A stretch of DNA of 64,000 bases. It comes from Blasia pusilla (taxonomy: Eukaryota). The stretch lies in contig CM114271.1 in assembly GCA_050084515.1 (NCBI GenBank), positions 32,922,001-32,986,000 on the forward strand. The letters are read 5' to 3'. The position numbers were made by a program, and so were the translations under genes. The notes beneath the pieces were generated by a model that had not been told where the DNA came from, ran no database searches, and saw only the letters and a list, made by a program, of their open reading frames with translations. This document shows, piece by piece, positions 30,008-58,323 of the stretch; positions within the stretch are counted from its first letter, which is position 1; each line of letters begins with the position of its first letter.

Positions 30008-32491
30008 ATAGCTAGGTTCTCAAACGCCATAGGCATGACTCTCCAAAAGAGCTCAGCCCGCTAAGAACACACTCGTACCCATACGTCTGGATCGTTGAGG
30101 TCAAGTACCTCAACCACATCTCGTCAAATCGACGCCGGTAACTCTGGCTCTCTCTCATAGAGCAAGAAATATGGTGAAAATTATGCCACGGATACCTGCC
30201 CACTGAAGCGGTAATCCATCGCCAACCACGGCAACTGTAGGTCCCAATCTCCCAAGAGTCCTCTTTGTAGTCAATACTTGCGCAATCCTCTCTTCACCGT
30301 GTGCACAACTCTCTCTTCCAAACCATCTGCCTCCGGATGATCTCGAGAAGTCGTACGATGATCTATCAATGCCTGATCACACAAGGCCTAAAAGTCACCC
30401 CTAAACTCAGTACCATGGTCCGTCAACATCTTTGTTGGTGCGCCGAAGTGACTAAGCACTCTATTAAGAAATGCATAAGCTGCTCCCTCACTCGACCTAT
30501 CTGGCAACGCTACCAACTCAATCCACTTGGAGAAGTGCTCCACCATGACCAACACGTACCGACTATGGCGTCCTGTCAATGGTAAAGGCCCTACAAAGTC
30601 TAAACTTGAGCGATACCCTAACCCCATGATCGGTAAAGGATGCAAGTGTGGTGTCGGAGCATTGAACGATGCCCGCACCCTACCACATACAATGCACCTG
30701 GCTACAAACTATTAAACATCAGTCTGCATACCATGCCACCAATACTGAATCTGAATCAAGCTATACGTACGCTTGACTCCAAAATGCCCTAACGCCTCGT
30801 GAGCATGTCTCACAACTCGTGCTCGCTATGAAGGATGCGGCACCATCCGCACTCGTCCATCTTCCGAAACTCAAAACACATGCGTCCCCTCCCACCTGAA
30901 CCTCCTGGCTCGCTCTAGGACTCAATCCCGCTCTCAAGCATCCACCGTGCTCGCTAAGACACCAGTGCGTAGGTACTCCAAAATCATCTCATCATCGTGG
31001 ATGTCTCTAGTTCCTGTCGACTCCTTACTAGCATCTGGATCTGAGGACTCACCATCCAACCTCCCTCCTAGAGTGGATGCCTCCTGCTGACCTGAAATAG
31101 CCAATAGACATAAATAGGCAGATGGGTGCCAACCCGTCACCATCTCCTCATCACTCTCGCCATGCCACCACGCTCAAGTCGCATCACTCTAGCTCGTGCG
31201 TGGGTTACGGCTCAACCCATCCGCATCCTGGTTCAGATGTCATGGGTGATGGAAAATCTGAAAATCATACTCCTTCAACATGAGTGACCATCTGGCAAGC
31301 TTCCCTATAAGCTTGTCAGACTCCATCAACCATCTGAGTGGCTGATGATCAGTGATGAGCGTGAAAGGGTTTCCGAAAAAATAACATCTAAAATGGGCCA
31401 CTCTCCACACTACAGCTAAGCACTCCCCCTCATAAGAACTGTACTTTGCCTCCGTAGCGTTGTTCGAGCAGCTCGCATATGCCACTACAAACTCCTTCCC
31501 CTCATCATCTCTCTAAGTGAGCACCGCTCCTAATCCCAACATACTCTACTCCGTATGTAACTACAGAGACAACCACATATAGGTATCCTCAAAATTGGTG
31601 AGGATGTCAACCTATCCTTGAGCTCTACAAATCCTTGCTCTTGATCATCTCCCCAAAATCACCCTTGGTCCAACCTAGTCAGCAAAGTCAATGCCTTCGC
31701 AATTGCACTAAAGCCCTTCACATACCATCGGTAGTAGTTTGCCAATCCCATGAAAGCTCAAACTTGACTCACATTTGTAGGGCGGGGAATGCACGCTTTG
31801 GCCTCCACCTTTGTCTTCTGAACTCCAAAGCCCCCTAGATAAATGGTGTGTCCAAGATACTCGATCTGGTCATGGAAGAACCTGCACTTGCCTGGATGTA
31901 ACTTCAGCCCATGTAAAAACAATCGTCGAAACACCTCCTCCAGATGTCTCTCAAACTCCTCAACCGTGGCACTGAAGATGATAATGTCATCAATGTAACA
32001 TCTTGCATAATCCAAAACAGCCAAAATCCTATCCATAACTTGTTGAAAACCCGCAGAGATGTTCTTCAACCCAAATGGTAAGAACCGCCACTAGTACAAA
32101 CAATCCCTCCCAAAAGGATCTATCCCCTAAAATATTGTCTTCTCCCTATCCTCCACTCGGATGGGCAACTGATGATAGCCAGCATGGAGATCCAAACAAT
32201 TGAAGATCCTTGCATGCCCCACCGCATCAAAGATCTCCTTGAGAGTAGGCATAGCATAGAAATCAGCCTTCGTATGCCGATTGATTGGACTATAATCCCC
32301 ACACATCCGCCCATCGGTCCACTGGTCATGCATGTCCTTCTTCGCCGACATAACTGTGGCAGATGCATACTCTCCAAGCAATCTCTCCACCAGTCCAACA
32401 TCAGCCAAGTCTCAAATCCGACTCTGAATCACGGCTTGCTCCATGTTGGAATACCTGTAGAGTCGTCGGAAGATAGGAGTATCACTATCCA
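30008..32491 (-). mobile_element. Degenerate RT-RNase H-integrase fragment of the same Gypsy family
   Basis: YASATVMSAKKD, LDLHAGYHQLPI, CYIDDIIIFS, YSSYEGECLAVVW, SLDFVGPLP, LTDHGTEF; colinear with ~52980-55470; many stops. Confidence 0.93.
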
Positions 32492-34735
32492 ATTTTAGTG
32501 TAATTTTAGTTATGGAAAATATATATTTTAGTGTAATTTCCAAAAAAAAATCCTCCCCCTCCCCCCCCTCCTTCCCATATCCCTCCACTCCCACATAAAG
32601 CCCCTTCCTTCTCCCTCCTACTTTGCATTTTCCTCCTTATGCGCCTCCCTCCTACTCTAACCTTCCGTTACCTTCCCTGTGTTTCCTACTTGTTCTCGAT
32701 ATTTTTCCTATCTTTTTTTTAAAATCAATTTTAGTAGAGGCAAGTTTTTTTTTCTTTCCTTGCTTCCATTGGTCTTCTTTTCCATCATTATCTTCCACCT
32801 TTTTCCAATCGTGGATGTCTTAGATCTTCAGAGAAACAATGAATCATACTCCATTTTTATATTCTTGCTACTTATTTATTTTGTACTTGTAACTAAATTT
32901 ATTGATTCTTGTCCTCTTCTTTTCTATGGTAGATGTAGGAGGTCCCTCCTTCGTTCTCGTGCTCTCTTCTACTTCCACTCAATGATGACTAATAGTGCAG
33001 GTAGTATGCCACGTTTTATCTCCTCTTCTTGATAAATTTTACCCTAATCCATAGAATTCGTATGTCTTTTCATCACTGACATTAATTTAGTAAAAAGACA
33101 TCATCCAAATCATTTTAGAGTTGTCTTTCATTCGAGTGTCAATGCATTTGACTTACTTTATGATATGCTAAGGAGTTGATTAACACTAATCCTCTGCATT
33201 CCCTACGAGTGTTACCAAATGGATTGTAGAGTGTTGAGAAATAAGTCACTATCACTCTAGGATGTCTTTCCATAGGGGATCACACAAATGAGATGAAAGA
33301 GCATACTCAACCCACTCATTTACAAGCCCAACTTACATACACTTCCAAAAGTGATGTACGTTGCATGTGTTCTTCATAATATCATCATAGATAGAGAAGA
33401 TCCTATTGTCAATGGTCCTATAGATCCCTCCTCCTTCACAAGGATGCATGTACCAAAAAAATCCTAGCAATCCTCCAAAGAATGAAATAACACGTGATAG
33501 AAAAAGAAATTGTTACGCTCTTTTCAAGCAGGTCATGGCAGAAGCTCAATAGTAATTTCAACATGTGAAGAAAGTTGTATCATGGATCATGCTATAAGTA
33601 CATCATACATGCATATTTTTGTTTGCCATGTCTTATACATGGTCTATGAGAACCTGTGAATGGAGTTGCATTGCATCATGAAAGTTAGAGAGTGTTAGCA
33701 CTGATATATAATTTAAACACAAAATCCAATAGTGTTAACTTTCATATTCATTTGACATAAAATAAAAATATTTTTTTATGTTGATCTTTTGTCAATAAAC
33801 TTTCAACACCAATTCTATACATAAAAGTTTATGTAGAAAAAATTCATTACATAAATTCCATCATAAATACATGAAATGCATATTATATTCTAATCATTTA
33901 TATCAAAATAATGCAACATCAAGTTTTTTTTATGCATGTCATTAATGTCATAAGAATTTTTCTTGAACATAAGATCTAAAGATAACAAAGAAGTTGAATA
34001 TCTCTTGAATTAGGATCTCAAGATATGCCCTCAAAATCTCCTACTAATAACACTAGTGTAGTGTCCATGCCATGCATGGGAGTGAAGAGACTAATGATGC
34101 TATACACAAAATTTTGTTGCCCATAATATGGGAACCATTTTCTTGTTGCCTAGTTGCCATATGTAAAAAAGACATATGTTTGCAAATCAAGAAGGCACTC
34201 TCAAATAATAATATAGATGGGAAAATGTTGTAGAGATCATTGTGAAGGCAAGTGCATTATGTTTTAGGACTTGTAGATCTAATTTTCATTGCTCAAGATC
34301 TTATCTGTGAGCACGATTTATAATATATTCTATGGAATCAACATTTTGCTGGATGGCTTAGCCCATTGATTTCCTAAGTCGTTGTGATTCTCTAATCCCA
34401 ACATTGAGGCTCTTCTTTTTCACAAATTCCTCTTCACAATACCACATAACCATAAGAAAAGTTATTTGTTCAATTGAAAATATGAAATTATTTTGAATAT
34501 CTAAATATTCCAAGTAGCCATAATATGGATGAAAACAATTATTATGAGAACCTTGAATAGGAGAAGATCCACGAGGGGAACTGCTTGAAGACGGTTTGGT
34601 AAACATGCCTTTTGAACCCCATTGGGATCTCAAATGATTCTACCTCTACATTAATCAACAAGAAACTAGTAACAACCCAAATTTTCATGTTATGTGATAT
34701 TTAACAAGAAATAAACATTATCATTCATATACCGT

Positions 34736-35147: not shown

Positions 35148-35817
35148 TGTCACGTCTCTTAGGATAGATCAGTGAGATCTAGTAGAGCGCCTTTGTGAGT
35201 AGCGGAGAACATGCTTATTAGGTCAAGGATGACCTGTTGAGGCCCCGGGAAACTTGAGAGAGCAGGTTTTCCCTTCGTTTCGGCTTATTTGGAGTCATAT
35301 TGAGGAACTTACTATTTTAGGTAATTACCAGTGTGAGTATATGATTGACTTTCTATTTTTGGCAAGCGATCCTCGACCTCCTACATCAGGTCAAGAGCCA
35401 AGGAGGTGACTTGGGAGAATAGGCTATCATTGAGAGAGTTTGGGAGAGGGGAGATGTATACCTCAAGGAGAGAGAGAGTTTGAGAGCTCATTCTCTCTTT
35501 GTTGAACCTCTTGGTATGAGGTGGCGGAGTTATGATCCCTTGCCTTGTGAGTGTAACCCAAGCCTCTCATTAGGAGAGTGGGTTTGGTTTGACATGAGAG
35601 AGAGTGCACACCTTTGAGAGCTATGGTGTGAGATGGTGTAGAGAGAGATTGGATCTTACTTTAATTGGAGATATTTTGGTACTTATTGTCTCGTTGTTTG
35701 GATGCCATGAGTTAGCATGGGATCGTGATGCCATAAGTTAGCATGGGATCGTGCATGTTTGTGTGTGTGTTCAGTGACACAGATGTATGTTGTGTCTCAA
35801 TGTGTATGCACACGACA
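35148..35817 (+). mobile_element. Solo terminal-repeat unit (A+B, 670 bp) with perfect 4-bp TSD TCTT
   Basis: TGTCACG...GCACACGACA, with TCTT at 35144-35147 and 35818-35821. Homologous to 5335-5974 and 56229-56864. Confidence 0.92.
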
Positions 35818-40859: not shown

Positions 40860-42450
40860 GACCAGAAAAGGAAGAAGGGGGCATTCCCCCTAACGACGAA
40901 ACTCACCAACAGCAGAGACAATATCAGCAACAACAAGAGAGCTATGACTACTACTAAGTGGGCCTCTAGCGCCGGTGTCTCCCACCCCTGAGCCCGCGCA
41001 AAATCCCATTAGCCTGGCACGCGCAACGCTATGGAGACCCGCTGCCTACAATCTGAGAATCGCAGTAGCTAAGGACAACCCATTTCTCGAGTGGAGATGA
41101 TGGGCGCGATCCGAATGAACGAAGTCGAACCTCTCCCCATAGCCCCATACATCTCTATGGCCAGGGGGATGAAGATGTGTCCCTCGTGTAGTCGACTGTA
41201 GATATGTGTCTTCTTCGCCGCCGCCGCCGCTCCTTGTAGCATTCGCCCTTGGGCCACCACTTGGGCTCGCACTGCCTCCCGCGTAGGATCTGTGACTACC
41301 ACGTCCGCCACAACCACCTCAGCCTCACGTGTCATGTAGAGATCGGCACGAATGAGGGAATCCCGCATGGAGTAGTGCCTCTCTCTTTGCACATGGAAGC
41401 CACTCTCCCGAGCAATATTGAACATGATATCCCGCACTGCATCGTGAGTGGCTATCCTCTCACCCCCAACTGGACAGCGTGCCAAATGCACACCAAGTGG
41501 ATCCAGGCTCCGGCGACACTCGCAGTGTGTCGAACCAACCACCGATGGTTGGGGGAGGCCCAAGCGGAACCGCATCGCTGTGGTATAGGTAAGTGGTGCG
41601 ATACGGAAAGCCTGGAGAAGGGGGTGCGCCCCTACCCATGAGCCTGCCCCCTTTCCGGAGCAAGAGCGAATACGGGCCCTAACCTCCATGGGGATATTCC
41701 CGTCAGACATAGTGCCTCTAAAAACTGCCTCAAAGTGGGCTTCCATCAAGGAAGATTGGAGCCCAGACTGACCGGAGGTAACTAAGGAGGAGAAAGTGGG
41801 GAGAACGGCTTTGGCCTCAACTCGAAGGGAATCTCTACAAGCTATGAGTGAAGGACTGAAAGGGAAAGAGCCATCCTCGACACGGGAGACGAGTGTAGAA
41901 GGAGCGGTCTATCTCTAACCAAAAATCGGGAGCAAAGGAGGGTGCCACTGTGGCCCAACTCTCTAAAAAAAGCGGAGGGCGCCACTAACTCGGTCGAGAG
42001 AAGACCTACTCCACCAAAAGAAATCGGCCAAGAGGCTGTCTCACGAGCTAACTCCCCCATGGGGCACTCTAAGGAGCCGGGTCCTAGAAGATCCCCAAAC
42101 ACTGCATGAGCTTCCTATCAAAGGATCTATATAGGGAAGAAAGGTGACTAGATGTCCGGCAGTTCTAGTGAGGTAACCAGGTCTACGAGCAAAACAAGAA
42201 GAGAGAATGCCGAAGGCGACTTGAGGGTCACCAATCCTTGTAAGATCATCAACGTGGAGAAGATCCTCGGTAAGAGCCGCTGCCACGAAAGTCGATACAA
42301 AGTCCTGGCTCCCGAGCGGTACTCCCAAGACTCGAAGCCCTCCGACAGGTCGCAAGAAGCCGTCGGGTAAATGTAGATCATCACGTAGGCCTGATGGAGA
42401 CCAAGCCTTGCACTTCCCCACCTTCACCGCCAGGCCGACACGTTTCAAGA
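40860..42450 (-). mobile_element. 5'-truncated RLE-type non-LTR retrotransposon (CRE-like clade): RT C-terminus/thumb, zinc knuckle and restriction-like endonuclease
   Basis: GLAVKVGKCKAWSP..GLRVLGVPLGSQDFV; WPISFGGVGL; RFRLGLP..CECRRSLDPLGVHLARC..GGERIATHDAVRD; RADL..VVADVVVTDP..KTHIY..FIPLAIEMYG. Confidence 0.85.
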
Positions 42451-42689
42451 GAGAGAGGAAGAAACAGTGCTTGAGTACGGAGAAATTTATGGCGTATTAC
42501 CCCTCCATGGGAATAATATTATACCTTCCAGATCTGTTCCCTAACAGGAGACGTTTACTGCTATGTTCATTCGGATGCCGGCGAGCGTGTAACCCTAATA
42601 TACCCGCATCTGATTAGAGCCGAGATGAAAAGGGGCCTCCGGATGAACATAGTGAAAACCCATCCAGAATATAAAATAGAGGACTCGTA

Positions 42690-43310
42690 GTCGAGTACAA
42701 GAAAAGAAAAACGGGGGCATCCTTCTATCTCCTAAACTCACCAACAAAGACAATATCAACGACACCGAGAGGGAAGTGATTACCACTAAGTGGGTTTCTA
42801 GTGTTGACGTCTCCCACAATCTGAGCATGCCGCATCTTGAGCAATACTGAACATGATATCCTGCACAACATCGTGAGCGGAAATCCTCTTACCTCCAAGT
42901 AGACAGCGTGCTAAATGCACACCAAGTGGATCTAGACTTCGGTGATACTCACAATGTTTCGAACCAGTCACCAATGGTTGGGGAAGGCCTAGTCAGAACC
43001 GCATTGCACCATTTACCTATGGTGTAGGTAAATGGTGCGATACGGAAAGCCGGGATGAGGGGATGAGCCCCCAACCATGAGCCTTCCCCCTTTCCAGAGC
43101 AAGAGCGAATACGGGCGCGGACGTCCATGGGAATATCCCCATCCGACATACTGACTCTAAAAGCTGCCTTAAAGTAGGTTTCCATTAAAGAAGATTGGAG
43201 CGCAGACCGACCGGAGGTAACTAGGGAGGAGAAAGTAGGGAGAACGGCTCTAGCCTAATCTAGAAGGGAATCTCTACATGCTCCAAGGGAAGAATGTAGA
43301 AGAGAAGCCG
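42690..43310 (-). mobile_element. Second, shorter and internally deleted fragment of the same CRE-like element
   Basis: DGDIPMDVRARIRSCSGKGEGSWLGAHPL is nearly identical to the 41749-41600 translation. The 3' part (CTAAGTGGG) matches ~40900-40985. Confidence 0.85.
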
Positions 43311-43392
43311 AGATGTAGGGTACCTTAATATAGATGCATGGCCACCCTTGACCACCAAATATTTCAAGGTTTTAGGGGTCCTTCTAGTAATT

Positions 43393-43855
43393 CCGTCATC
43401 CAACTCCGTCTAGAATCGGCCATAAGCGCCTACATAGTGTAGCTCGCTGGCTACACCATGTAGCCAATGAGCTACACGGTGCTCCCGAGAGCACCCGCAT
43501 GGGGCAATCCGCCCCCATACTCAATCTTTATAAAAAATTGGGCAGCACTTCCGCATGCCACTCTTCCACACAAAAAATCGGCAACCGCAAAGCACAACCA
43601 AAGCCGCCCTTGCTCCGGTGAGCACTCCCATGAGCCGTTGAATGGGGAATACTGTCCCCAACCTGCAACAACAGCGAGTGAACAACAAGCTCCTCCATTG
43701 AAACTCTCTTACTCTCTCATTTCCTCTTTGTAAATCGCTCAAATCTCACACTATGTCTCACACCAAGCTCTCCATGGTGTGCACTCTCTCTCTCATGTCA
43801 AACCAAACCCACTCTCCTAATGAGAGGCTTGGGTTACACACACAAGGCAAGGAGG
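43393..43855 (-). mobile_element. Fragment of a third copy of the Gypsy 5' end (3' part of A plus start of leader)
   Basis: Reverse complement matches ~44660-45071, plus A sequence seen at 56610-56670. Confidence 0.9.
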
Positions 43856-44029
43856 AACATACGTTTTCCATATGCAATCTTGACGTCGGTAGACTAGATG
43901 GAGAGAAAAGAAAACAAGAAGTGCTTGTAAGGGCCGTAACAAGTAATTTTGACATATTAAATTATATTTTCTTTAAGTGCAGAGTTGCAGATTTGATTAG
44001 TATGGAAGTGGGTTTACATCAAAGTGCAT

Positions 44030-44433
44030 TCCCTTCATGGAGTCCCACTAAGTTTGTCCTCCCATTGCTGCCCGAACTTCCTATCTCTACTGTCATGTCT
44101 TTTAGGATAGATCGGCGAGATCTAGTATAGCGCCTTCGGAGATACTCGAGGATAGCCTCAAGAGGTTGAGGATGACCAGCTGAGGCAACGGGTAACCTAC
44201 GAGAGCAGGTTTTCCCTTTGTTTCGGCTCCAAATCCCTTCATGGAGTCCCACTAAGTTTGTCCTCCCATTGTTGCCCGAACTTCCTATCTCTACTGTCAT
44301 GTCTTTTAGGATAGATCGGCAAGATCTAGTAGAGCGCCTTCGGAGATACTCGAGGATAGCCTCAAGAGGTTGAGGATGACCTGCTGAGGCAACGAGTAAC
44401 CTACGAGAGCAGGTTTTCCCTTTGTTTCGGCTC
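44030..44433. repeat. 200-bp tandem duplication spanning the element's 5' junction
   Basis: 44030-44229 and 44234-44433 are nearly identical, separated by CAAA. Each contains flank, CTAC and the first ~139 bp of segment A. Confidence 0.93.
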
Positions 44434-44586
44434 ATTTGGAGCCATATTGAGGAACTTACTATTTCGGGTAAGTTACTCTTTGTGGTATAGTTTTCTTTCC
44501 ACTTTTGGAAGTTTCCTTTGACCCGCTATAGTAGATCAAGAGCCAAGGAGGTGACCTACGAGCATAGGTTATCGTGGAGAGGGCTT

Positions 44587-44668
<82 letters not shown>

Positions 44669-45633
44669 ACACCATGGAGAGCTTGGTGTGAGATTTGAGC
44701 GATTTACAAAGAGGGAATGAGAGAGTGAGAGAGTTTCAATGGAGGAGCTCGCTGGTCACTCACTGTTGTTGCAGGTTGAGGACCCTATTCCCCGTTCAGC
44801 GACTCATGGGAGTGCTAATCGGAGCAAGGGAGGCTTTGGTTGTGCTTTGCGGTTGCCGATTTTTTGTGTGGAAGAGTGGCGCGCGGGAGCGCTGCCCAAT
44901 TTTTGATAAGGTTTAAGTATGGGGGCGCGTTGCCCCATGCAGGTGCTCTCGGGAGCACTGGCATGTGTAGCTACGTGCCTACACTGTGTAGCTTGTTGGC
45001 TACATGGTGTCACCAACGAGCTACACAGTGTAGGCGCGTATGGCCGGTTCTAGACGGAGTTGGATGACGGAAAGGACATGGCTGGGTAGTCACGGCGATA
45101 ACATGTAGCATCATCAATAGCCGCGGATGGCAAAGCATAGTCTGGCCGTGAAGTGCAGCCGCAGAAGACTGGCCATGGAGTCAGGCGCGTGGCTCGCCGG
45201 TGACAAGCAAGGTTACCAACATCTCGCGGCAAGATGAGCGACAGGCTGAGTCCGGCGGCTCAAATTGGGATTGACAACATGACTCCCTTCCCCACATTTG
45301 AAGGGCCAAGGCAAGGCGGTCAGACTTTCTCTAAATTTGGAACCCCCCCACCAAATTATCTTTTGTTTTTAACTATAATGATCCCCGGAAAAACTATATC
45401 TACTCTCATAAAATATCCCACTTAGCCCACCAATAGTGGGTCAACTCCTCTAAATCTTTTTTTTCACTCAACTTCTATTCACAAGCAAATTTATTATTGT
45501 CCTATCCACTCAACATAGAAGGTCTTACTTTTCTAACCCTCAATTGAAAATTTACCAAGTATTTTTGAAGTTTGATCCTTCCCAAGCGATGGCTATGGCA
45601 ACCTACCAAAAAAATGTCGTAACTTTGTGCTCA

Positions 45634-47580
45634 CACAATGAAATTGTGCACCGTTTCTTCCACAACGTGCACACCTTCCCGATCTAGGACAAATTCAAAT
45701 TGATTTCTTCATTCAACCTTCCAACAAAAACTAATAGGGACTGTTATGCAACCCAACGTCTCTTCTCCTACGCAAAATTTGGCAGCGCTTGGGCGAGAGT
45801 AGGGAGGCCCAGTGTGGTCGTGAAGTGCGGTTCCGGCTTGCTACGGAGTAGTTCCAACCGAACAATTTTGGTTTTTGTAACGTGGTAGGCGGCTGCCAAT
45901 TTGGAGCCCTAGCAATGCGCCGACAGCAAGAGGTGGAGCGGGGCAACACCGAGCCATGCACAATGAAATTGTGCACCGTTTCTTCCACAACGTGCACACC
46001 TTCCCGATCTAGGACAAATTCAAATTGATTTCTTCATTCAACCTTCCAACAAAAACTAATAGGGACTGTCATGCAACCCAACGTCTCTTCTCCTACGCAA
46101 AATTTGGCAGCGCTTGGGCGAGAGTAGGGAGGCCCAGTGTGGTCGTGAAGTGCGGTTCCGGCTTGCTACGGAGTAGTTCCAACCGAACAATTTTGGTTTT
46201 TGTAACGTGGTAGGCGGCTGCCAATTTGGAGCCCTAGCAATGCGTTGACAGCAAGAGGTGGAGCGGGGCAACACCGAGCCGTGCACAATGAAATTGTGCA
46301 CCGTTTCTTCCACAACGTGCACACCTTCCCGATCTAGGACAAATTCAAATTGATTTCTTCATTCAACCTTCCAACAAAAACTAATAGGGACTGTCATGCA
46401 ACCCAACGTCTCTTCTCCTACGCAAAATTTGGCAGCGCTTGGGCGAGAGTAGGGAGGCCCAGTGTGGCCGTGAAGTGCGGTTCCGGCTTGCTACGGAGTA
46501 GTTCCAACCGAACAATTTTGGTTTTTGTAACGTGGTAGGCGGCTGCCAATTTGGAGCCCTAGCAATGCGTTGACAGCAAGAGGTGGAGCGGGGCAACCCG
46601 AGCCGTGCACAATGAAATTGTGCACCGTTTCTTCCACAACGTGCACACCTTCGATCTAGGACAAATTCAAATTGATTTCTTCATTCAACCTTCCAACAAA
46701 AACTAATAGGTGTCATGCAACCCAACGTCTCTTCTCCTACGCAAAATTTGGCAGCGCTTGGCGAGTAGGGAGGCCGGTGTGGCCGTGAAGTGCGGTTCCG
46801 GCTTGCTACGGAGTAGTTCCAACCGAACAATTTTGGTTTTTGTAACGTGGTAGGCGGCTGCCAATTTGGAGCCCTAGCAATGCGTTGACAGCAAGAGGTG
46901 GAGCGGGGGCAACACCGAGCCGTGCACAATGAAATTGTGCACCGTTTCTTCCACAGCGTGCACACCTTCCCGATCTAGGACAAATTCAAATTGATTTCTT
47001 CATTCAACCTTCCAACAAAAACTAATAGGGACTGTCATGCAACCCAACGTCTCTTCTCCTACGCAAAATTTGGCAGCGCTTGGGCGAGAGTAGGGAGGCC
47101 CAGTGTGGCCGTGAAGTGCGGTTCCGGCTTGCTACGGAGTAGTTCCAACCGAAAATTTTTGGTTTTTGTAACGTGGTAGGCGGCTGCCAATTTGGAGCCC
47201 TAGCAATGCGTTGACAGCAAGAGGTGGAGCGGGGGCAACACCGAGCCGTGCACAATGAAATTGTGCACCGTTTCTTCCACAGCGTGCACACCTTCCCGAT
47301 CTAGGACAAATTCAAATTGATTTCTTCATTCAACCTTCCAACAAAAACTAATAGGGACTGTCATGCAACCCAACGTCTCTTCTCCTACGCAAAATTTGGC
47401 AGCGCTTGGGCGAGAGTAGGGAGGCCCAATGTGGCCGTGAAGTGCGGTTCCGGCTTGCTACGGAGTAGTTCCAACCGAACAATTTTGGTTTTTGTAACGT
47501 GGTATGCGGCTGCCAATTTGGAGCCCTAGCAATGCGCCGACAGCAAGAGGTGGAGCGGGGCAACACCGAGCCGTGCACAA
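45634..47580. repeat. Tandem array of six ~325-bp units inside the retrotransposon leader
   Basis: Unit starts (CACAATGAAATTGTGCACCG) at 45634, 45959, 46284, 46608, 46925 and 47251; very few differences between units. Confidence 0.97.
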
Positions 47581-49159
47581 CGGCCTCCACCACGACCCTC
47601 AATTGGTGCCCATGTGGCTTCCCATGAGTGCGATCAACGCGGCTATAACAAGGCTAACAAGCGGCCTTTGATGGCGGAAGGCGGGCAGGCATAGTCGGTT
47701 CGTGAAGTGCGGCCAAGGCATTGGTGGCTGTGTTTATAGGTTTGAAGTTTTTGTTGGGAGAAATCAACCCAAGAATTCCGCTGGCGCCTTACTCTAAGGT
47801 GCTCCAACTCCGTAACCCCGGCCTGACATTGCTCTACTGGCCTTGTCGCGGTCTCCGGTTTGCTTGCCGTGCTAAGCTATTCCTGACCCTGTTGTGAACT
47901 CCACGCAGCTGCTGCCGTGTGTTGCTATGGTGCAACTGCCTACTTCATCCGCAGGCTACTGACTACTGCGTCTGGTCATTCTAGCCGGCGCAGTTAGTGA
48001 TTGTGGCCATGGCCGCCTGACATTAGCTGTTGGCTCCATCCAGATGCCGTTGCCTTCGTCAAATGAAGTTCTTGCACAGTAAAAAATAGGACGATGGGCC
48101 CTACGGACAACTGATTTTGCAATTTTTGGCTGCTGATGAGAGGTTGTAACTGCTCGTCACCGATCGACCGAGGATTGGCCGCTCAGCGATGACATGTGAA
48201 CTTTTTTGAGTGATGGGGTCGCCATTTCTTTTATGCCTTGCTATGTCTTGAGATTGGTAGCTGCTCGACGACGTTCGAGTACCGTGCCGTGACACCTGTA
48301 GCAACAACGCGCCGCTGATTGCCGTGCCGTGCCGCTTGTGGCTGCACCGCATCATCTCGATCGTGAAGCCGCACCATCATTGGAGCAGAGTGTGTTTTGA
48401 TTTTAAGGAGGGTATACGGCATCCTATTCTCGAGTGCCGTGCTGTTCCGTTCCACCAGTGCCGCACCATGCCGTTGGACCCGCACCGCACATTGAGAAGA
48501 TTTGAGCATCGTCATTATCACAGGAGTGCGACTTGATGCTTGGAGGAGTTTGTCTTCACGACCAAGTTGGGGTTGAAATTTGTAGTTGCTGAGGAGCGAC
48601 ATCGATACTTGTTCAGGTTACCCATTTTGGTCTTTTGCCCTGCACGTGTTAGGGAATTCCGGGTATTGGGCAATTATTTGGGGATATTGGGTTTCGTGCA
48701 GATGCTGAGAGCATCGTTGATGTATGGGTTTAGGGGACATAGACGTGTGTGGGATGTCCATATTTGAGGGTATGTTTTGTCGATGAGAGGGTAGATCAGT
48801 CGATTTTCCGCACCACGCTGCTTGTTGCAGCACAACAAACGTCTCAGTGAGAGTGTGTAGATTGAGTGCCGCCTGTTTAGTTTGAGTGATTGAGTGATTA
48901 CTCGCAAGATTGAGAGTGATCGTGTGAGAGAGGCACAAGGGTCATTACGGGGTCCTTTCAGGACTTTGAGAGGCGAGGTGGTGGGCCTGAGGGTAGCTCT
49001 AGAGGATTTACACGGAGTGGCGTGAGGTTTCAAGCATCTCCACTTGAGGGGCCGTCTCGACCTCCTTCTGTGTCATCTTTAAACCAGGAGGAGAGTGCAG
49101 AGGAGTTTGTTAGTGCATTACCGCACATATTGAGTGGTCCTACCAGTTGGGCGTACAAG

Positions 49160-51200
49160 ATGGACGAGCGGGGTAGAGGACCACATAGGTTTCCGGGTGC
49201 TATAGGCACAATAGAGTTGCACGACTTTATTGCAGAGTTTTGGAGTTGATGTGAGTCACAACGGGAAAGGAACTCCAGAGAGTTCAACCCGTTTACAACA
49301 TGGAATAGAATATTTCAACATTTAGAGGGGGCACCCATGGACGATTACCATGAGTTCTCCCACCGATACGACCAGGAGATTGAGGCATGGAGACTCTACT
49401 ATGATCCACATTATGTGTCATGGACTGATCCGTTTCCAAATGAGGAGGAGGAGTCGGGAGAGGCTACTTCTTCTTCCACCAGTGATGTTGTAGGAGGGGT
49501 AACTTGCACTGGAGCAGTTGCACCATCTAGTCAGGTTCATCCCAGGTTTAACCCCATGGTTGAGTTCTTTGTTGAGTTGCGGACGAGCTACCAAGGGGTA
49601 TAGACGGAGAAGTTGCGGAGTATCCACGACTTCTAGAGGCGTCGGGTGAGAGTTTGCATGAGGCCTACACTCGTTTGCGCCGGTTGATTAGCATCACTCA
49701 GGGGGTGACAAAGTCCCAGACTATCCAGTCATGGTACGTGATGCTGGACCAAAACTTGCGGACACAGATGAGGGATGGGGTGCTTCTTATGAACACCTCC
49801 CCTACATTGAGAGATGTTTTTATGACCACCAAGAACATTGAGCACAACATGGCGGAGGAGAGCGTAGCCACCATGGGTTATGCGCGAAAGCAGTCACGAT
49901 TGCTTATACCACCAGTGCAGCAACGTGCATTTTGAGAGAGGTCTGTGGCACCACGAGTTCAGAGAGGATATCGGGAGGCCGTGCCACAAACACCTGCGCC
50001 TTCATATGCGGCTAAGAAATAGCCGCCAGCGATTATTTGTTCAGCATGTGGTGGAGCCCATCACCAACGCGATTGCACTCGTCAGGGGCATGGACGTGTG
50101 CCTCGGCATGGAGGAGGAGATGGTGCTGCACTAGGAGTTTATCAGTGTGACTATTTTTAGAGGTATGGTCACACACGCGCCAGGTGATTTAGCCTTCATC
50201 CTAAGTTACGTCCACACCGAGGGCCACAGAGGGCACCAGAGCGAGTTTTCGGTCCGGGTGGGCCTAGAGATCGTGCACCAGGTGGTCCCGTTGGGGGACA
50301 AGGAGTTGGAGTTTCCCGAGGGGGTGGTGGAGTTTCCCATGCAAGAGGTACAGTTCCACCACCTAGATGTGTCCAAGGAGACGTCAAGCGTGAGACTGGG
50401 ATGGCTCCTTAGATACAGCATCAACAGATTGTTGCTATGGCATTGAGGTTCCCCGATGCCGGAGCCAAAGCCGGGGCACTGACGTCTTATGGAGCAACTG
50501 GAGATATGGAGGATCCTAGCTAGATGTGCGCAATTGTTGAGTTGGAGGCAGTTGATGTTGTTACATGTGGAGCCGCCGTAGAGTGGGATCCATAGAGAGG
50601 GGAAGCATCACGTTCAGAGGTGATTGCAAAGGAGGTGATGGACCTGCCCTTGGAGCCAATGCTCGGGCCGCCCACCTCAGATTCATGGCAAGTTGCAGAT
50701 GCTAGGATGGCGGAGATGCCCGCTAGACCCACGATAGAGCGTGCCATGGTTGCTCCACGTGTTGTGTTGATGGATAACCGGGGAAAGATCTTCCAATTGG
50801 TGAGTCCAGGAGGTAGATTTTTTTTCTGCAGCGTGTCTTGTTAGATTCAAGAGCGCAACCCCTGATGTTGTGGAAGGCGGAATTTATAGGTTTGGGCTTG
50901 ACAAGGGCCGATGTGGAGCATTTTTCATTCCGGATACAAACATCCTTGGATGGAGCGAGTACCACACAATTTATCACTTGACATGAGGTTGTGGTGAGGA
51001 TTCGCCCATGACATCCTACCGATGAGTCCGTGGTGCAAGCCAAGGCGATAGTGACCGATGCCGAGTCCTACAACGTCTTGGTTGATGGAGCAGTGTTGTA
51101 CCCGATGGGGTTTTCCCTAAACAAGGAGTCAGCGTCTTACAAACCACGATGGTAGTCCGATGATGGGCACCTTAGCTCATTACCTGTTCGATTCACGGGT
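49160..51200 (+). pseudogene. gag: gag (two zinc knuckles) and aspartic protease, disrupted
   Basis: MDERGRGPHRFPG..ELHDFIAEF; ESLHEAYTRLRRLI; CSACGGAHHQRDC (~50038); CDYF*RYGHTRAR (~50146); protease VLLDSRAQ (~50835; decayed D-S-G) and YNVLVDG. Confidence 0.8.
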
Positions 51201-51539
51201 GGAGTGATCGAGCGACGACCAAGAGAGATGGCGACATTAGCCGTGTTCAAAAGCGCCATCACGTGGCCTTGTGATTTGATTGAGGGGCATGCCCATGCAG
51301 AGGACACTCCCGCGCCTGACACTTCTAGGGAGAGTAATGTTATGGTAGCAAGATCAATCTGTGGAGGAGAGGTGTTGTTGTGGAGCTCGAGTGAGGAGCT
51401 TCGACGCTTGGTCGATGAGCATGTATAGATGGCGTGGAGTCAGGTGTTTGCATCAGAGCGTGATGGGTCACAAAAACCCAAGGTAGCCAAGAGTGCTACT
51501 ATGACCCCTTTGGACACCACCTCAATTGTGTGGTGCATC

Positions 51540-52500
51540 CCAGAGGAGGGTATTCGCGTGTTGGATCTCTTTGGAGGGATCATAACAGGCTTAGCTGATG
51601 TTTTGCAGGCAGGAGTGTGCGTGCAGTAGTATTGTACGTTGAGATTGATGATGATGCGAGGCGCGCTTCACTTCGCCATGTGGCACAATTTTTCCTCTGA
51701 TGTCCCGAATTTTTTTCTGTGTCCGCCGTCTAGGGGTTCCAAAGTTCCCTACCGAGGGACATTTCATTGTTGGGGGCGCAGGACTTGGAGTGGGTAGGGA
51801 CCATAGATTTGGTCATTGCTGGTTGGCCGTGTCAGGACGAGTCAAGTGTTGGAGAAGGTAGCGGGTTGGGTGACACTCGATCCGGGTTATTTTGGGAAAT
51901 GATACGGATCTTGCGACACTTGCAAGAACATCAATCTCGTTCTCCAGCATCCATTCTAGAGAATATACCAATTTTGGGCGATTTGAGGTCTCGCGTAGTG
52001 ACGAGTGCACATCAGGTGCATGCATGGATTGGCTGTGTAGTATTGTTGGATGCGGCGAGTGTAGATTCATGAGCATATCGCCCGCCTCTTTGGTGGACCC
52101 AACTTGGTGCTACATGACTTGTTGCGGAGGGATTATGCAAGAGTGGAGAGCTCCTCTGATTTGTTGGTGGATTCTATTGTGGATCCAGGTCGTCCATCAC
52201 AGGCAATGAGGCACGATGATCGACCGCCATTGACTGTGATCAACAGGATTGGCATGCTTGGGGCAGCCTTTCCCACATTGGTGAGTTTTCCCGCCCCCTA
52301 TGCATTCAAGGAGGGTGGGCCTGGCTTAGTTTGGGATGATGAGGTACAGCGGTTGATGGAGCCCAACGCCGATGAGCGAGAGCAAGCGATGGGATTCCCC
52401 ACAAGAGTGACGGAAATATCATCACTATTAGAGGCATCAAAATGCCATGTCTTGGGTTAGGCAATAGACCTGAACTGTTTGATATGGATGTTCAACTTAG
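51540..52500 (+). pseudogene. C5 cytosine DNA methyltransferase domain within the pol polyprotein (frameshifts and stops)
   Basis: Motifs in canonical order: I IRVLDLFGGI (51552), II YVEIDDDAR, III PRDI, IV IDLVIAGWPCQD (catalytic PC at 51827-51832), V GLGDTRSGLFWEMIRIL, VI ILENIP, VIII LDAASVDS*AYR..LWWTN, IX EPNADEREQAMGFP, X HVLG*AIDLN. Confidence 0.92.
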
Positions 52501-52919
52501 GAGTAGTTGATCATCGTCGTTTGAGGTTGCGACAGATTACACTTGTTGCGTTGGTGAGCCCCATGCCTACTGAGATGGTTCAAGTATTGGCTGGGGGCGA
52601 GACCCAAGGAAATCGACACACCAAGTGTGATCGGGAGAGACACCCTTAGACTTCTTGGGTTGTTTTGCATGTACATTGAGAGATGATAGCCACAACATCG
52701 AGCGTGATTCCTGGTACTGTACGTGGAGGAGATCACAGTTTGCAGTTGGCTACAAGGGAGCAGACGAGTTCTATTGTCCGAGAGGAGGTTCCATCACAAC
52801 AACCATTGACATCCGTGCCGGAGAGTCCTAACATAGACATGATGGAGACTTGGGAGCCAGATATGGGTCCTAAGTAGATAGGAGGAGAGCGGCGCCAGAT
52901 ACACTAGTTCCTTAGGAGT

Positions 52920-55680
52920 TATAGGAGTTGTTTTTCATTTTGCATGCATGATTTGGGTACACTAAAGGGTACATGGATCCGCATTAAGTTGTCGAGCGAC
53001 ACGCCAATCTTCTTACAACCCTACAGGTATAGTGATATGGAGAGGGCTCTGATTCAGAGTAGAAGCCAAGACTTGGTTGGAGTAGGATTAGTGGAGATGT
53101 CGCATGGAGAGTATGCATCTCCCACTGTCATGCCCGCCAAGAAGGATGTGCATGGCAACTGGATGGATAGGCGGATGTGGGAGATTACCAACCTATCAAT
53201 CGGTAGACAAAGTCCGATAGGTATGCCATGCCCACCCATGAGGAGATCTTTGATGCTATTGGGCAAACAAAGATCTTCAGTTCGTTAGATCTTCGAGCCG
53301 GATACTATCAATTGCCTATCAGATTGGAGGATAGGCAAAAGACAACATTTTGGGGCATCGATCCTCACGGGAAAGATTTCTTGTACTAGTGGCACTTCTT
53401 ACCATTTGGGTTAAAGAATACCACGGCTGAGTTTCAGAGGGTCATGGATAGGATCTTGGAAGGTCTAGATTTTGCTAGGTGTTACATTGATGACATCGTA
53501 GTCTTTAGCGCCACGGTTGAGGAGCATGAGCGACATCTTGAGGAGGTGTTTCCACAATTGCACTAACATGGGCAGAAATTATATCTAGGCAAGTGCAAGT
53601 TCTTCTACAACCCGATTGAGTATCTGGGTCATACAATATACCTACGGGGCCTTGGTATGCAGCAGACAAAGGGAGAGGCTATTTCACGCATTCCACGCCC
53701 TACAGATGGGAGTCAAGTTCTTGCATTCATGAGACTGGCGAACTTCTATTGATGGTATGTCAAGGGTTTCAGTTCAATTGCGAAGCCACTAACCTTGCTG
53801 ATCAAGGTGGATCATGAGTGGCATTGGGGGGATAAGCAGGAGAGAACATTTCAGCAACTTAAGGACAGATTGACGCCCCTATCCATATTGAGGAGATCGA
53901 TTAGGGGGCGTCCTTTCCAATTGCGTACACATTGGAGCATGTTGGGGCTTGGAGCGGTGCTTACCTAGCATGATGATGAGGGTAAAGAGAACTTTGTGGC
54001 TTACACTAGTCGCTCGAACAACATTGTAGAGTCGAAGTATAGCTCGTATGAGGGTGAGTGCTTGGCCGTAGTGTGGGCTGTCGCGCATTTCAAGTGTTAT
54101 TTATTTGGAAACCCCTTTACCATCATTATTGATGATCAGCCACTTAAGTGGGTGATGGAGTCCCACAAGCTTACATGGAAGCTTGGGAGGTGGGCTCTTT
54201 TGTTGCAAGAGTATAATTTCCACGCGGTACATAGACCTGGGACGCTCAACCAAGATGTAGATGGTTTGAGCAGTAACCCATGCGCGAGTCAGGGAGATGC
54301 GACTGAAGTTTGTTGGCATGGAGAGAGTGATGAGGAATTGGTGCCAGGATGGCAGACGTCAGTCTATTTGGGGTTGTTGGCTATGGAGAGCCGGATTGCT
54401 GAGACTTTGATGGTGAGGTCTGATGGAGAGTCCTTAGATCTAGAGGCCGGTGAGGAGACGACATGTGGCCAAGTCATTCACGACGATGGAGTTGTCTTGG
54501 AGTACCTGTGTATTGGCAAAGTCGTAGGCACAATGGGTGCTAGAGAGCAGGATCAGATCTTATAGTGATCCAAACGGTTCCGGTGGGAGGGGACACATGT
54601 GTTGCAAGTTTTGGAGGATGGTAGAGTACGTGTAGTGCCTCATCCTTCACAGAGAGCACCTTTGGTGCGTCACGCCCACAAGGAGTTGGATCATTTTGGA
54701 GTGAAGCCGACGTACAACTTGCTCCAAATACAGTATTGGTGGCGAGGCATGCAGATTGATGTTCAACATTTTGTTTCCAGATGCATCGTGTGTGATATGG
54801 TCCGAGCATCGTTCAATGCTCCGACTCCACCGTTGCATCCAATTCCGATCATGGGTTTAGGTTATAGACGAAGTTTGGATTTTGCAGTACCTTTACCTTT
54901 GACGGAGCGCCATAGTCGTTATGTGTTGTTGATGGTCGATCACTTCTTGAAGTGGATAGAGTTGGTTGCATTGCCTGACAAAGCAAGCAAGTGAGTAGCG
55001 TATGCCTTCCTAGATCGAGTGCTGAGTCATTACGGCGCACCAACTGAGGTGTTGATAGACAAGGGTTGAGAGTTTTGCGGGGAGTTTCAGGCCTTGTGTG
55101 ATCAGACACTGATCGACCACCGCACCACTTCGGGAGATCATCTTGAGGTGGATGGACTAGCGGAGAGGGTTGTGCAGACGGTGAAGAGAGGATTACCCAA
55201 GTATGGCTTGTAGAGAGGTTACATAGGAGATTGGGACCTCCAGTTTCCGTGGTTGGCGATGGGATACAGATTCAATAGGCAAGCATCCTTAACGTCTTTC
55301 TCACCGTACTTGCTCCTTTATGGTCGAGAGCCAGATTTACCTAAGGCCATTTATCGAGATGTTGGTTAGGTGTTGAACCTTGAAGACCCTGATGTATGGA
55401 TGCGAGCATATTCTTAGAGGGATGAATTGTTTCGGAGAGTGATGCCCATGGCGTTTGAGAGCTTGGCAATTGCGCAACATTGGGATACGTTGAGGTATGC
55501 GACTATTCGGGGAGGTGGTTATCGACCGACTATCTGGATGTTTCAACAGGGAGACTATGTCCACTTACAACAGACGGCACCCACGATGTTGGATGTGACC
55601 GCAGGGTGCACGGTACCATCTTGAGAGTGCGTGAATTTTTCTATCTGGTGTTCTCTTATTGGAGGGACGCGATGGTATGG
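52920..55680 (+). pseudogene. pol: Reverse transcriptase, RNase H and DDE integrase, disrupted
   Basis: YASPTVMPAKKD, LDLRAGYYQ, LPFGLKN, YIDD (53483), YLGH, YSSYEGECLAVVWAV, HAHKELDHFG..CIVC (HHCC), SLDFA, IDKG*EF, GLAERVV; RT-RH-INT order indicates Ty3/Gypsy. Confidence 0.95.
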
Positions 55681-55778
55681 TTTGGAAGGACCATGTGCGT
55701 AATTGTGCGCCATATCACCTTCCTAACATTGGCGGTACAATTGATCCAAGCTTAGCAGTAGTTCCTATAGGCTTGCCA

Positions 55779-55919
55779 TGTATGTTGCGTGGTTTTGCCC
55801 ATGGTGCAACCACTATGCTCGTATGTAATGGATGTTCGAGAGGATGGCATATGGCATGTTTGACGCTACCTCTCATTAGGGTTCCTCAGGGATGATGGAT
55901 GTGTCCCAGATGTACATAG
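55779..55919 (+). pseudogene. PHD finger at the integrase C-terminus
   Basis: CMLR....TMLVCNGCSRGWHMACLTLPLIRVPQG*WMCPRCT* fits the C4HC3 pattern, with the second Cys mutated (CGT) and one in-frame stop. Confidence 0.88.
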
Positions 55920-56664
55920 AGTAGGTAGTTATAGATTCCGACTTATGTCTGTGACATGAATGACAAGAAGGCGACTAACGATGGGGCCATATGAGCATCC
56001 GACCTGTTTGCTTTTAGCGTCCGAGAGATATATGTCATGGTAGGTAAGGATAGATGGCTATCTGGAGTTAGAGGGACCTAACCACCAACTAGGGGGAAAT
56101 TGGAGATACTTTGGTACTTCTTGTCTCGTTTTTTGAATTCCATGAGTTAGTATGGGATTATGTGTGTTTGTGTGTATGTTCGGTGATTGCGATGTATGTT
56201 GTATAGCGATGTGTATGCGCACGATAACTGTCACATATTTTAGGATAGATCAACGAGATCTAGTAGAGTGCCTTCAAAGATACTGGAGGAGAGCCTCAAG
56301 AGGTTGAGAAAGACCTGCTAAGGCCACGGGTAACGTGCAAGAGCTGGTTTTTCCTTCGTTTCGGCTCATTTGGAGCCACATTGAGGAACTTACTATTTTG
56401 GGTAAGTTATAGTGTATGGTATAGTTGAATTTCCACTTTGGGAAGTGGCCCTTAACCCGCTACACCAAGTCAAGAGCTAGGAGGTGACGTGTGAGCATAG
56501 GTTATCGTGGAGAGGGATTGGGAGAGGGAAGGGTGTTTACCTCCAAGAGAGAGCTTAAGAGCTCATTCTTTTTGTTGAACCTCTTGGCATGAGGCGACGG
56601 AGCTATGGTCTTCCTTGCTTTGTGTGTGTAACCCAAGCCTCTCATTAGGAGAGTGGGTTTGGTT

Positions 56665-56729
<65 letters not shown>

Positions 56730-58323
56730 TGTGCATACCATGTAGAGCTTGGTGTGAAACATTATGTGAGATTTGAGCGATTTAATGGGATTATGTGTGT
56801 TGTGTGTTTGTGTGTATGTTGTGACAACGACGTATGTTGTGTAGCAATGTGTATGCGCACGATACTACTAGAGTCTGCAAATTTTTTTCCAATGTCCTTT
56901 TCTCATAGCAATATGAATGATTTCCAACAATTTTCCAGCACCAAAAATTTTATTCCATACATGAACTCTTAGAGCTCAAAATAAATTGGAATAGTGAAAA
57001 CATCATGTAACACGAGGCTATAATTTACCACTTTGCAAAAGTCTACATTTGCATTCATGAAACCACTTTTGATATGGAATTAAAGTACATGTGGCTCTCG
57101 CAATTATGGTAGTCATTGGCTAAGTTTTGAAGGCTTATAGTTTTGATTCTTCTCAAAATTTTAAGATTTTTATAATGACTCATTTTCCTTTTAATTCAAA
57201 TTTCCTCATTTTACAGATTTCCATAGGAAATATTTGAAATTTCTTGCTCTGAAAACAATGTGGGCACCAGCCGGCCTTATATACACACACTCTCCAAGAA
57301 AGACCCGTCAACTTCTTCTACCTAAAAGTCCTAGATGAGAATTGAGCTACTCTTAATTAGCGATCGTTAATCAAGAACAAAATTAGATTGTCTTTTTGCC
57401 CATCTTCGATCTAAAATTCCTAGATGAGAATTGAGCTACTCTTTATTTAGGAGCAAAGTTAGATTGTGTCTTAACGTCCATTAATACCAAGCTAAGCAAC
57501 ACCAAACTTGCAACTAGTGGACATGTATTTCTTTACCCGTCCCATGGTGGACACATTTTCCTATTGTTTCTATATCTTACAGAATTAAACATGCAAATTG
57601 TTGTACAGTTCTCATGCGTCTTTATGAAATGCTAAAATTAGCTTACTCCAATGGTTACTCTCGGGCTTACTTGGTAACCTTTAGGTCACGTCATTGCTCA
57701 TCGTGATTTGGGGGATACTTAATCGATGAGAAATCACTTTTCTCACATCCATCTTGCTTAGCGATTTTGAATCATTTTTATCTTGTTCGTACTTTTCAGA
57801 GTTATTTCAAGGAAACATACTTTTGTGAGCCATAAAACTAGGTTTGTGGAGTAATTCCTTTGGTTGTCTTCCATGGAGCTCAACAATTGTGGCCGGTATG
57901 CAATACAAGTGGCAATTAAACTTGACTTCACTCTTTGAAATAACAAACGTTTAAATTCATCCTCATATATACTTCATACCATTATAATGAAATAGAACAT
58001 CCATTCACCTCAACCTCCCCTCCACAGACAAGGGGAGAGATGAGCCTCCAAGAAAACCTTTGGAAGAGCGTTGTTTGGTTTTGGAGGTTTCTAGGTTTCA
58101 CGAAATGAACTTCACTTCTTTAGAGCTAGGATTATAACTTGCCAATGAGTGTAGGTGGGACATGAACTGGAGGAAGCACAATGTCAACATTTCCTATGCT
58201 GGCTTCCTGCATCTGTTTGCAATAGTTTGGCATTCGCAACCAATGAAGAATTCAACCCTCCAATGGAATGGGAGGAAGTTGAAGGGTGTGCGCATGGAAG
58301 GTCAAGCTATCTTGGAAGGATCC

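Follow-up and report, generated by a model that had tools for sequence, protein, structure and literature searches.

A decayed PHD finger at the C-terminus of a Ty3/gypsy-type integrase, from a retrotransposon lineage bearing a DNMT3-like methyltransferase, in the liverwort Blasia pusilla

Results

The stretch of DNA analysed here, hereafter the window, comprises 64,000 nucleotides of the liverwort Blasia pusilla (GenBank assembly GCA_050084515.1, contig CM114271.1, positions 32,922,001 to 32,986,000 of the forward strand), and all coordinates below count from its first letter. It contains a Ty3/gypsy-type retrotransposon, a unit of ~12.8 kb on the + strand bounded by direct repeats (44293-44706 and 56227-56784) that are ~84% identical. 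The coding region of this element closes with the remnant of a PHD finger at 55779-55916 (+), recognized by Pfam model PF00628, by translation and by alignment to intact relatives. This remnant is almost certainly what is left of the C-terminal PHD finger of an integrase from a lineage of Ty3/gypsy-type elements that bear a DNMT3-like methyltransferase.

Read from 55779, the frame translates as CMLRGFAHGATTMLVCNGCSRGWHMACLTLPLIRVPQG, a stop, WMCPRCT and a second stop. In a Pfam scan of the three + frames of 44000-57000, with X written at stops, PF00628 matched at 55803-55913 with 30.9 bits (E = 2.7e-7) against a gathering score of 24. The original prediction, made from the letters of the window, had placed a C4HC3 PHD pattern here; the PHD finger is real, but the copy in the window falls short of the full pattern, keeping seven of the eight zinc ligands and being interrupted by a TGA stop (55893-55895) between ligands 6 and 7. 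Arg stands in place of ligand 2 (55788-55790), and an Asp between ligands 3 and 4 that is invariant among relatives is Asn. Relative to the integrase core the finger is also displaced by +1 in frame, and the shift falls somewhere in 55607-55643. Past this point, 55644-55916 shares 61% identity with the intact C-terminus of a relative (locus L002), and the TAG at 55917-55919 (+) is the homologous end of the polyprotein, which makes the finger its very C-terminus; relatives of the same subclade end 2-13 residues past the last ligand, as the window copy does. An alternative genetic code that would rescue the TGA was ruled out, since all three stop codons interrupt the element throughout.

The remainder of the element can be followed from one end to the other. 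Its 5' terminal repeat, A1 (44089-44708, +; from direct repeats and a tandem-repeat scan), has a 204-nt tandem duplication (44030-44433) that starts ahead of it and runs into it, and pairs with the 3' repeat over two segments, 44293-44596 with 56227-56529 (83.6% identity) and 44603-44706 with 56669-56784 (85.3%). Runs of (GA)n occur in both terminal repeats, the one in A1 at 44591-44667. Between the 5' repeat and the coding region sits a leader array of six 325-nt copies (45634-47580, +; Tandem Repeats Finder period 325, 6.0 copies, 97% matches), and a 156-nt piece related to its unit lies at 7201-7357, in another fragment of the element family.

The coding remnants, all on the + strand, begin with an aspartic-protease-like region in two frames with five stops (50683-51632; tblastn of residues 97-408 of a partial Marchantia polyprotein, P0036, ~42% identity). 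A DNMT3-like cytosine-5 methyltransferase domain follows, again in two frames with five stops (51632-52490; Pfam PF00145 and tblastn): PF00145 matches at 51800-51982 (37.2 bits, E = 3e-9), residues 409-694 of P0036 align at 49-61% identity, and motifs IV (..GWPCQ..) and VI (..ENI..) remain legible. Next come reverse transcriptase (RT) and RNase H (53180-54214; RT at 53183-53638, RVT_1 83.9 bits; RNase H at 53825-54214, RT_RNaseH 98.7 bits and RT_RNaseH_2 86.3 bits), the zinc-binding domain and catalytic core of the integrase (54644-55129; Integrase_H2C2 at 54644-54808, 49.1 bits; rve at 54890-55129, 34.6 bits), and the C-terminal region of the integrase with its SH3-like part (55130-55778; tblastn and three-frame reading). 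In a tblastn with the relative P0003, residues 109-982 stop at 55606 and residues 994-1083 restart at 55644 in the next frame. The resulting order is protease-DNMT-RT-RNase H-integrase-PHD; a Ty3/gypsy-type pol with a DNMT3-like domain inside it characterizes the type called Gypsy-DNMT3.

The 3' repeat block (56161-56864, +; repeat comparison) consists of B1 (56161-56226), A2 (56227-56786) and B2 (56801-56864); A2 is ~84% identical to A1, and B1 and B2 share 87.9% over 66 nt. A search of the 5' end of the element for a copy of the B segment found none. The repeat order, A1 ... B1-A2-B2, is unlike that of two plain long terminal repeats (LTRs), and in other fragments of the family (5336-5972 and 35148-35815) the repeat is followed by B.

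Aligned by tblastn with relatives, the window copy shows 12 stops from RT to integrase and 10 in the protease and DNMT regions, in addition to several frame changes. With at least 22 stops and these shifts, no polyprotein can come from it, and it has neither an open gag-pol frame nor near-identical terminal repeats (83.6-85.3%). The copy is old and dead, and the original observation, right in substance, describes a fossil. The accompanying claim of a chromatin reader and a DNA methylation writer in one polyprotein fails for this copy, with its +1 frame and 22 stops, but is borne out by the intact relative P0168, a single open reading frame (ORF) of 2811 residues that runs protease-DNMT-RT-RNase H-integrase and ends with the PHD finger.

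Relatives were gathered with the X-read RT-integrase stretch, which matched 177 proteins at E <= 1e-10, the best 120 of which were analysed. Among these 120, PF00628 is annotated in 40, the full C4HC3 pattern is found in 41, and one or the other in 42; the nearest named relative of the element among the matches listed is a partial Marchantia polymorpha polyprotein at 52% identity. Absence of the domain from intact copies, its presence out of frame, or a lack of purifying selection had been named in advance as grounds for rejecting the prediction. A fresh Pfam scan of the first 22 relatives found the finger in all of them, in frame with the integrase (PF00628, 27.6-45.9 bits), so that the proposed check with the PF00628 hidden Markov model came out positive in relatives as it had, above the gathering score, in the window. 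In each of the 22 the finger starts 210-215 residues after the end of the rve core, and in the window its first Cys codon (55779) lies 650 nt, or ~216 codons, past the core end at 55129. The prediction had also remarked that the finger occupies the position of the chromodomain in chromoviruses, and the measured distances give this remark a quantitative footing: in two Gypsy polyproteins from the same search (P0051 and P0106), the chromodomain starts 194 and 212 residues past the core. The chromodomain model PF00385, present in those two proteins, had no match in the three + frames of 44000-57000 or in the 22 relatives.

A FastTree phylogeny was built from concatenated RT-RNase H and integrase sequences (115 sequences, as 5 of the 120 lacked one part; the window copy was included, its stops written as X). 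The PHD-bearing tips form one clade with support 1.0, in which 41 of 43 tips have the finger; of the two without it, P0038 ends 20 residues after the integrase and P0063 retains only the first half of the finger. Midpoint rooting separates this clade (43) from the remainder (72), in a tree that holds no reference chromoviruses. Living members of the lineage (subclade A) translate the finger in frame, as the ~45 residues that close the polyprotein; its spacing from the integrase core is constant, and purifying selection maintains it.

The evidence for selection comes from a dN/dS comparison across copies, as the prediction had proposed. By the Nei-Gojobori method over 45 finger codons, the intact copies L001-L003 give omega values of 0.044, 0.052 and 0.124, two of which are rough because dS exceeds 1 for L001 against L002 and L003. 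The integrase C-terminus beside the finger gives 0.041, 0.030 and 0.028 in the same copies.

The lineage is large. A profile of the integrase C-terminus with the PHD finger (alignment A2), searched against 1.84 billion cluster representatives, matched 13004 proteins at E <= 0.001, 2572 at 1e-10 and 403 at 1e-30; nearly all of the best 150 representatives span the whole profile, and the ligand pattern is complete in 142 of the 150. Among metagenome contigs, a scan confirmed 541 of 594 candidate stretches, and 80 loci from it were analysed. The C-terminal region is held by 58 of them, with 10 of the 58 stop-free through the region and 23 showing the full ligand pattern. Most of these loci represent a single large family in decay, in which changes from Cys to Tyr and from Gln to stop abound. 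That family (L007-L080) is present as dozens of copies on long AT-rich contigs; the copies are also riddled with Trp-to-stop and similar transition-type changes, and the decay matches the pattern expected from deamination of methylated cytosines.

The methyltransferase that accompanies the finger is of the DNMT3 kind. For the DNMT region of P0036, the 29 best solved-structure matches are all DNMT3A, DNMT3B or DNMT3C (best E = 6.1e-8), with HaeIII next at 2e-3, and the motifs FGG, (E/P)CQ, EN(T/V) and AHRxRxxW are kept across 60 aligned DNMT members. At motif IV, Glu-Cys-Gln is commoner in the lineage than the canonical Pro-Cys-Gln (AGWECQD in 22 of 60); the window and Marchantia copies have Pro-Cys-Gln. 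The Pfam DNA_methylase model misses most of these domains, flagging a DNMT in 10 of the 120 listed matches. BLASTP with three DNMT regions found a DNMT-like stretch of at least 100 residues in 39 of 45 clade members, and five of the six others are ORFs that begin just downstream of the place where the DNMT is expected, leaving 39 of 40 assessable members with the DNMT-like region. In an independent search of representatives, 30 proteins had RT and integrase and 26 of them a DNMT-like region, placed between RNase H and integrase in 25 and before RT in one; the other four have the before-RT arrangement and are truncated upstream of RT. The DNMT precedes RT in the subclade of the window and in a basal pair, and lies between RNase H and integrase in a larger, chlorophyte-rich subclade. 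Reader and writer are thus usually, not always, inherited together.

Members of the chlorophyte-rich subclade (P0009-P0042, P0186 and others) continue for 80-470 residues past the PHD finger. This tail is conserved, with 112 of the gathered proteins matching it at E <= 1e-3, and bears methyltransferase-like motifs (..EPFNGTG.. and ..IVTSPWF..). It has no match in Pfam, NCBIfam or solved structures, and a comparison with a protein atlas gave weak leads to N6_Mtase/MTS clusters (score 0.86-0.87).

What the finger may read was approached through its nearest solved relatives. A phmmer search with the finger of the intact member P0003 against all solved chains returned 99 matches at E <= 0.01. The best 60 of the 99 include CHD4, PHF12, ATXR5, PHF21A, KDM5A/B/D, Lid, WSTF, AIRE, KMT2C/D and DPF2/3, as well as BAZ2A/B, UHRF1/2, KAT6A/B, RCO1, ORC1b and KAP1; ATXR5 is the best single-domain match among them (54.6 bits), and BPTF, ING and TAF3 chains are absent from these 60. 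ATXR5, PHF21A/BHC80, KDM5 PHD1, AIRE, CHD4 PHD2 and BAZ2 read the tail of histone H3 with Lys4 unmethylated (H3K4me0), while readers of trimethylated Lys4 (H3K4me3) carry a cage Trp two residues before the ligand His. Most lineage members have Gly at that position. By sequence, the finger would belong to the H3K4me0-reader subclass, having no cage Trp at that position in most members and, as its closest relatives, known readers of unmodified H3. This combination of neighbours and Gly favours H3K4me0, to which we would give a roughly even chance of being the state that the finger reads.

Discussion

Taken as a whole, the data are best explained, and we think rather probably so, if the window holds a decayed PHD-integrase from a DNMT3-like-bearing lineage in which the finger acts as a reader of H3. 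Judged from its sequence, the finger probably serves to tether integration to chromatin. It would bind the N-terminal tail of H3, most probably with Lys4 unmethylated, and would thereby hold the complex of integrase and complementary DNA (cDNA) at nucleosomes away from active promoters, much as the chromodomain of chromoviruses does at chromatin methylated on H3 Lys9 (H3K9). More weakly, we suspect that the DNMT3-like enzyme might then methylate the cDNA or the new insertion, in which case the element would be equipped both to read silent chromatin and to write it. The original interpretation, that the finger may target integration to a chromatin state and form a module with the DNMT, is plausible in sequence terms, and at the level of the lineage it survives the grounds for rejection that it had set itself. 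What merits further attention is the lineage-wide pairing in which a probable H3K4me0 reader, borne by the integrase, is coupled with a DNMT3-like enzyme.

Several observations weigh against this picture. Lacking any capacity to make protein, the window copy can have no function at this locus. Histone binding and its specificity are read from sequence similarity, and some of the matched proteins (DPF3, KAT6A and UHRF1) read other features of H3; an AlphaFold model of the integrase C-terminus with the finger (8 sequences) was poor and was left unused (mean predicted local distance difference test score 51.9, with 54-84 per 10-residue block in the PHD). Within the decayed family, 7 copies compared in 21 non-independent pairs give omega values of 0.12-0.52 for the finger, well above those of the intact copies; the region next to it gives 0.12-1.08, and both ranges are what drift in dead copies would be expected to produce. 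The pairing with the DNMT is also imperfect. P0042 keeps the PHD finger and has a 628-residue insert without detectable similarity to a DNMT, and a search with the DNMT region of P0168 found four proteins, three with the finger and one, P0359, with a low-complexity tail and no PHD. The two different positions of the DNMT mark it as a movable module rather than a fixed partner. In the subclade of the window, RT, RNase H and integrase separate the DNMT from the PHD finger, and protease processing may put the two on different proteins. The proposed epigenetic module of finger and DNMT gains support from the joint inheritance of the two domains (39 of 40 assessable members, and 26 of 30 proteins in the independent search), to which P0042 and P0359 are exceptions. 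We regard it as doubtful that reader and writer act as one functional unit. Somewhat less likely again is the most far-reaching version, in which one large green algal and bryophyte lineage has co-inherited an integrase-borne H3K4me0 reader and a DNMT3-like writer as a mobile counterpart of the ADD-DNMT3 logic of hosts. If this were true, the element would land in H3K4-unmethylated chromatin and methylate its new copy, thus buying host tolerance or shaping the host methylome.

Other explanations differ in how far they depart from this reading. The shortness of the region and its broken ligand and frame might suggest a chance cysteine-rich stretch, or an unrelated host exon captured by the window copy; both are refuted, and can be given practically no weight, by the PF00628 score above the cut-off, the presence of the finger in 22 of 22 relatives, full-length homology to the C-termini of relatives, and an RT/integrase clade in which 41 of 43 tips have the finger in the same place. 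That the locus is a mere fossil, in which a PHD-like pattern marks nothing but an old insertion, is an accurate account of the window copy as far as its lost ligand, internal stop, frame shift, at least 22 stops in the rest of pol and ~84% terminal repeats are concerned. As a full explanation it is very improbable, because it leaves the conservation, reading frame and selection in hundreds of relatives unexplained.

More searching is the possibility that the finger does not guide integration at all but serves the methyltransferase by gating or aiming it, as the ADD domain does in DNMT3, or else acts in host-factor recruitment, stability or nuclear import. The co-inheritance of PHD and DNMT3-like domains in 39 of 40 assessable clade members fits such a service, as does the DNMT-integrase-PHD order of the larger subclade, where the DNMT lies directly N-terminal to the integrase (25 of 26) and one mature protein could therefore hold both DNMT and PHD. 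We nevertheless consider it unlikely, given that the finger stays 210-215 residues from the core in 22 of 22 relatives while the DNMT moves, that it occupies the place of the chromodomain in chromoviruses, and that P0359 has a DNMT without a finger and P0042 a finger without a detectable DNMT. Less likely still, the finger might read the active mark H3K4me3 and steer integration to promoters or open chromatin. Many PHD fingers do read H3K4me3, there are retroviruses and Ty elements that rely on host factors located at active sites, and the original prediction had left the H3K4 state open. Against this improbable reading, no known H3K4me3 reader occurs among the best 60 of the 99 solved matches, and most members have Gly at the position of the cage Trp. 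The sole field data for a PHD-bearing Gypsy element, as given in the available text of PMC9940879, moreover show an excess of intergenic insertions.

The reading we prefer, of a chromatin-tethering PHD finger on the integrase of a DNMT3-like-bearing lineage, can be set beside several described systems. According to the available text of de Mendoza et al. (2018, PMC5890265), KnitGypsy-Dnmt3 of Klebsormidium nitens has a Gypsy pol with a DNMT3-like domain, a Ka/Ks below 0.2 for this DNMT, and an odd, DIRS-like structure of split direct repeats. It resembles the window element in its intron-less DNMT3-like domain inside a Gypsy polyprotein, in its streptophyte host and in its odd repeats, for which the window has the B1-A2-B2 block at the 3' end; the comparison is one of descriptions, with no Klebsormidium protein named among the matches listed. 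The B1-A2-B2 block recalls the split repeats of KnitGypsy-Dnmt3, which would be odd beside a DDE integrase, and it could alternatively stem from an old rearrangement. The two also differ in host, the window being from a liverwort and its lineage also running through chlorophyte algae (Pleodorina, Tetrabaena). Apart from the domain drawing of Fig. 4c, the words 'PHD' and 'chromodomain' do not occur in the main text or one supplement of PMC5890265. 'Gypsy-DNMT3' as a name for streptophyte elements appears in the accessible portion of a preprint (bioRxiv 10.64898/2026.05.21.726589), which also describes 'EpiLTRs' of Cymbomonas and Euglena, LTR elements that carry a chromodomain along with methyltransferases for adenine and for cytosine. 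As there described, EpiLTRs share with the PHD lineage the combination of DNA-methylation writer(s) and an integrase chromatin reader in one retrotransposon, but differ in having a chromodomain and a DNMT4-related enzyme 3' of pol, in contrast to a PHD finger and a DNMT3-like enzyme internal to pol.

The standard example of integration steered by a reader domain is that of the chromoviruses; elements that carry a DNMT have come as a surprise more recently. The chromodomain-integrase fusion of chromoviruses is said to be exemplified by MAGGY, reportedly in work of Gao et al. in 2008. As in the PHD lineage, a small histone reader is fused to the integrase C-terminus at a similar distance past the core (194/212 versus 210-215 residues), with tethering of integration to silent chromatin as the presumed use; chromoviruses differ in using a chromodomain and H3K9 methylation, where the PHD lineage has a zinc finger that likely reads unmethylated H3K4. 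Among Gypsy elements with a PHD finger, REM1 of Chlamydomonas was reportedly described by Perez-Alegre in 2005. Also from Chlamydomonas is Gypsy-7a_cRei, which the available text of PMC9940879 presents as an active, PHD-bearing element of 15.4 kb whose insertions fell in intergenic DNA 2.6 times as often as expected. Like the lineage studied here, it is a green-lineage Gypsy element with a PHD in Gag-Pol that has been proposed to bias insertion, and it is as large as the chlorophyte members. Its published legend gives no DNMT; since Pfam also misses the DNMT in most members of our lineage, kinship can be put forward by description only.

PHD fingers in retrotransposons are known in general, as the accessible parts of PMC6673714, PMC8557442 and the bioRxiv version of Grau-Bove et al. 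attest. No passage linking a PHD finger to the DNMT-bearing Gypsy lineage was found in the texts available, PMC9998398 included, although figures, supplements and theses (Craig 2021) may contain one. Gypsy elements with a DNMT and Gypsy elements with a PHD finger have both been published before; what the window contributes is a dead member from a new group of hosts. The closest host analogue is the pairing of ADD domain and methyltransferase in DNMT3, in which a reader of unmethylated H3K4 sits beside a de novo methyltransferase. There the reader is an ADD domain next to the methyltransferase, whereas the lineage has a single canonical PHD finger on the integrase, for which host H3K4me0 readers (ATXR5, KDM5A/B PHD1, PHF21A/BHC80, AIRE and CHD4 PHD2) appear as the best sequence matches among solved structures.

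Retrotransposons with chromatin tools of their own show mobile DNA negotiating with host silencing. Here both ideas, the steering reader and the resident methyltransferase, are combined in one old lineage of hundreds of diverged families that reaches from the volvocine algae to the liverworts. Should the finger read H3K4 in its unmethylated state, the element would share the reader-writer logic of the DNMT3 of its hosts. The result from the window itself is modest, for it concerns a long-dead copy that chiefly marks the reach of the lineage into liverworts.

Other features of the window

A second, related decayed copy lies on the - strand at 29992-32519 and comprises RT, RNase H and integrase (blastn, 73.9% identity to 52995-55460; Pfam; tblastn of P0003 residues 36-942, with 21 stops); it breaks off ~95 residues before the expected start of the finger. 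More repeat fragments of the element family occur near 5.1-8.2 kb, 35.1-35.8 kb and 43.4-43.8 kb. An Rfam scan of the window gave no match. Amid the retrotransposon debris stands a seemingly intact, intron-less gene on the - strand (23413-24849) with a legume-lectin domain, a transmembrane stretch and no kinase domain, the best named match of which is in Marchantia polymorpha (46% identity, 98% coverage). Two open frames of 279 and 151 residues at 41069-42496 (-) resemble the C-terminal part of a non-LTR reverse transcriptase of the LINE (long interspersed nuclear element) type, and direct repeats lie near them at 41410-41853 and 42839-43292. Directly upstream of the 5' repeat of the element, an inverted copy (82.6%) of its leader segment 44655-45072 is found at 43391-43794, which suggests either part of a second copy lying head to head with the element or a rearrangement.

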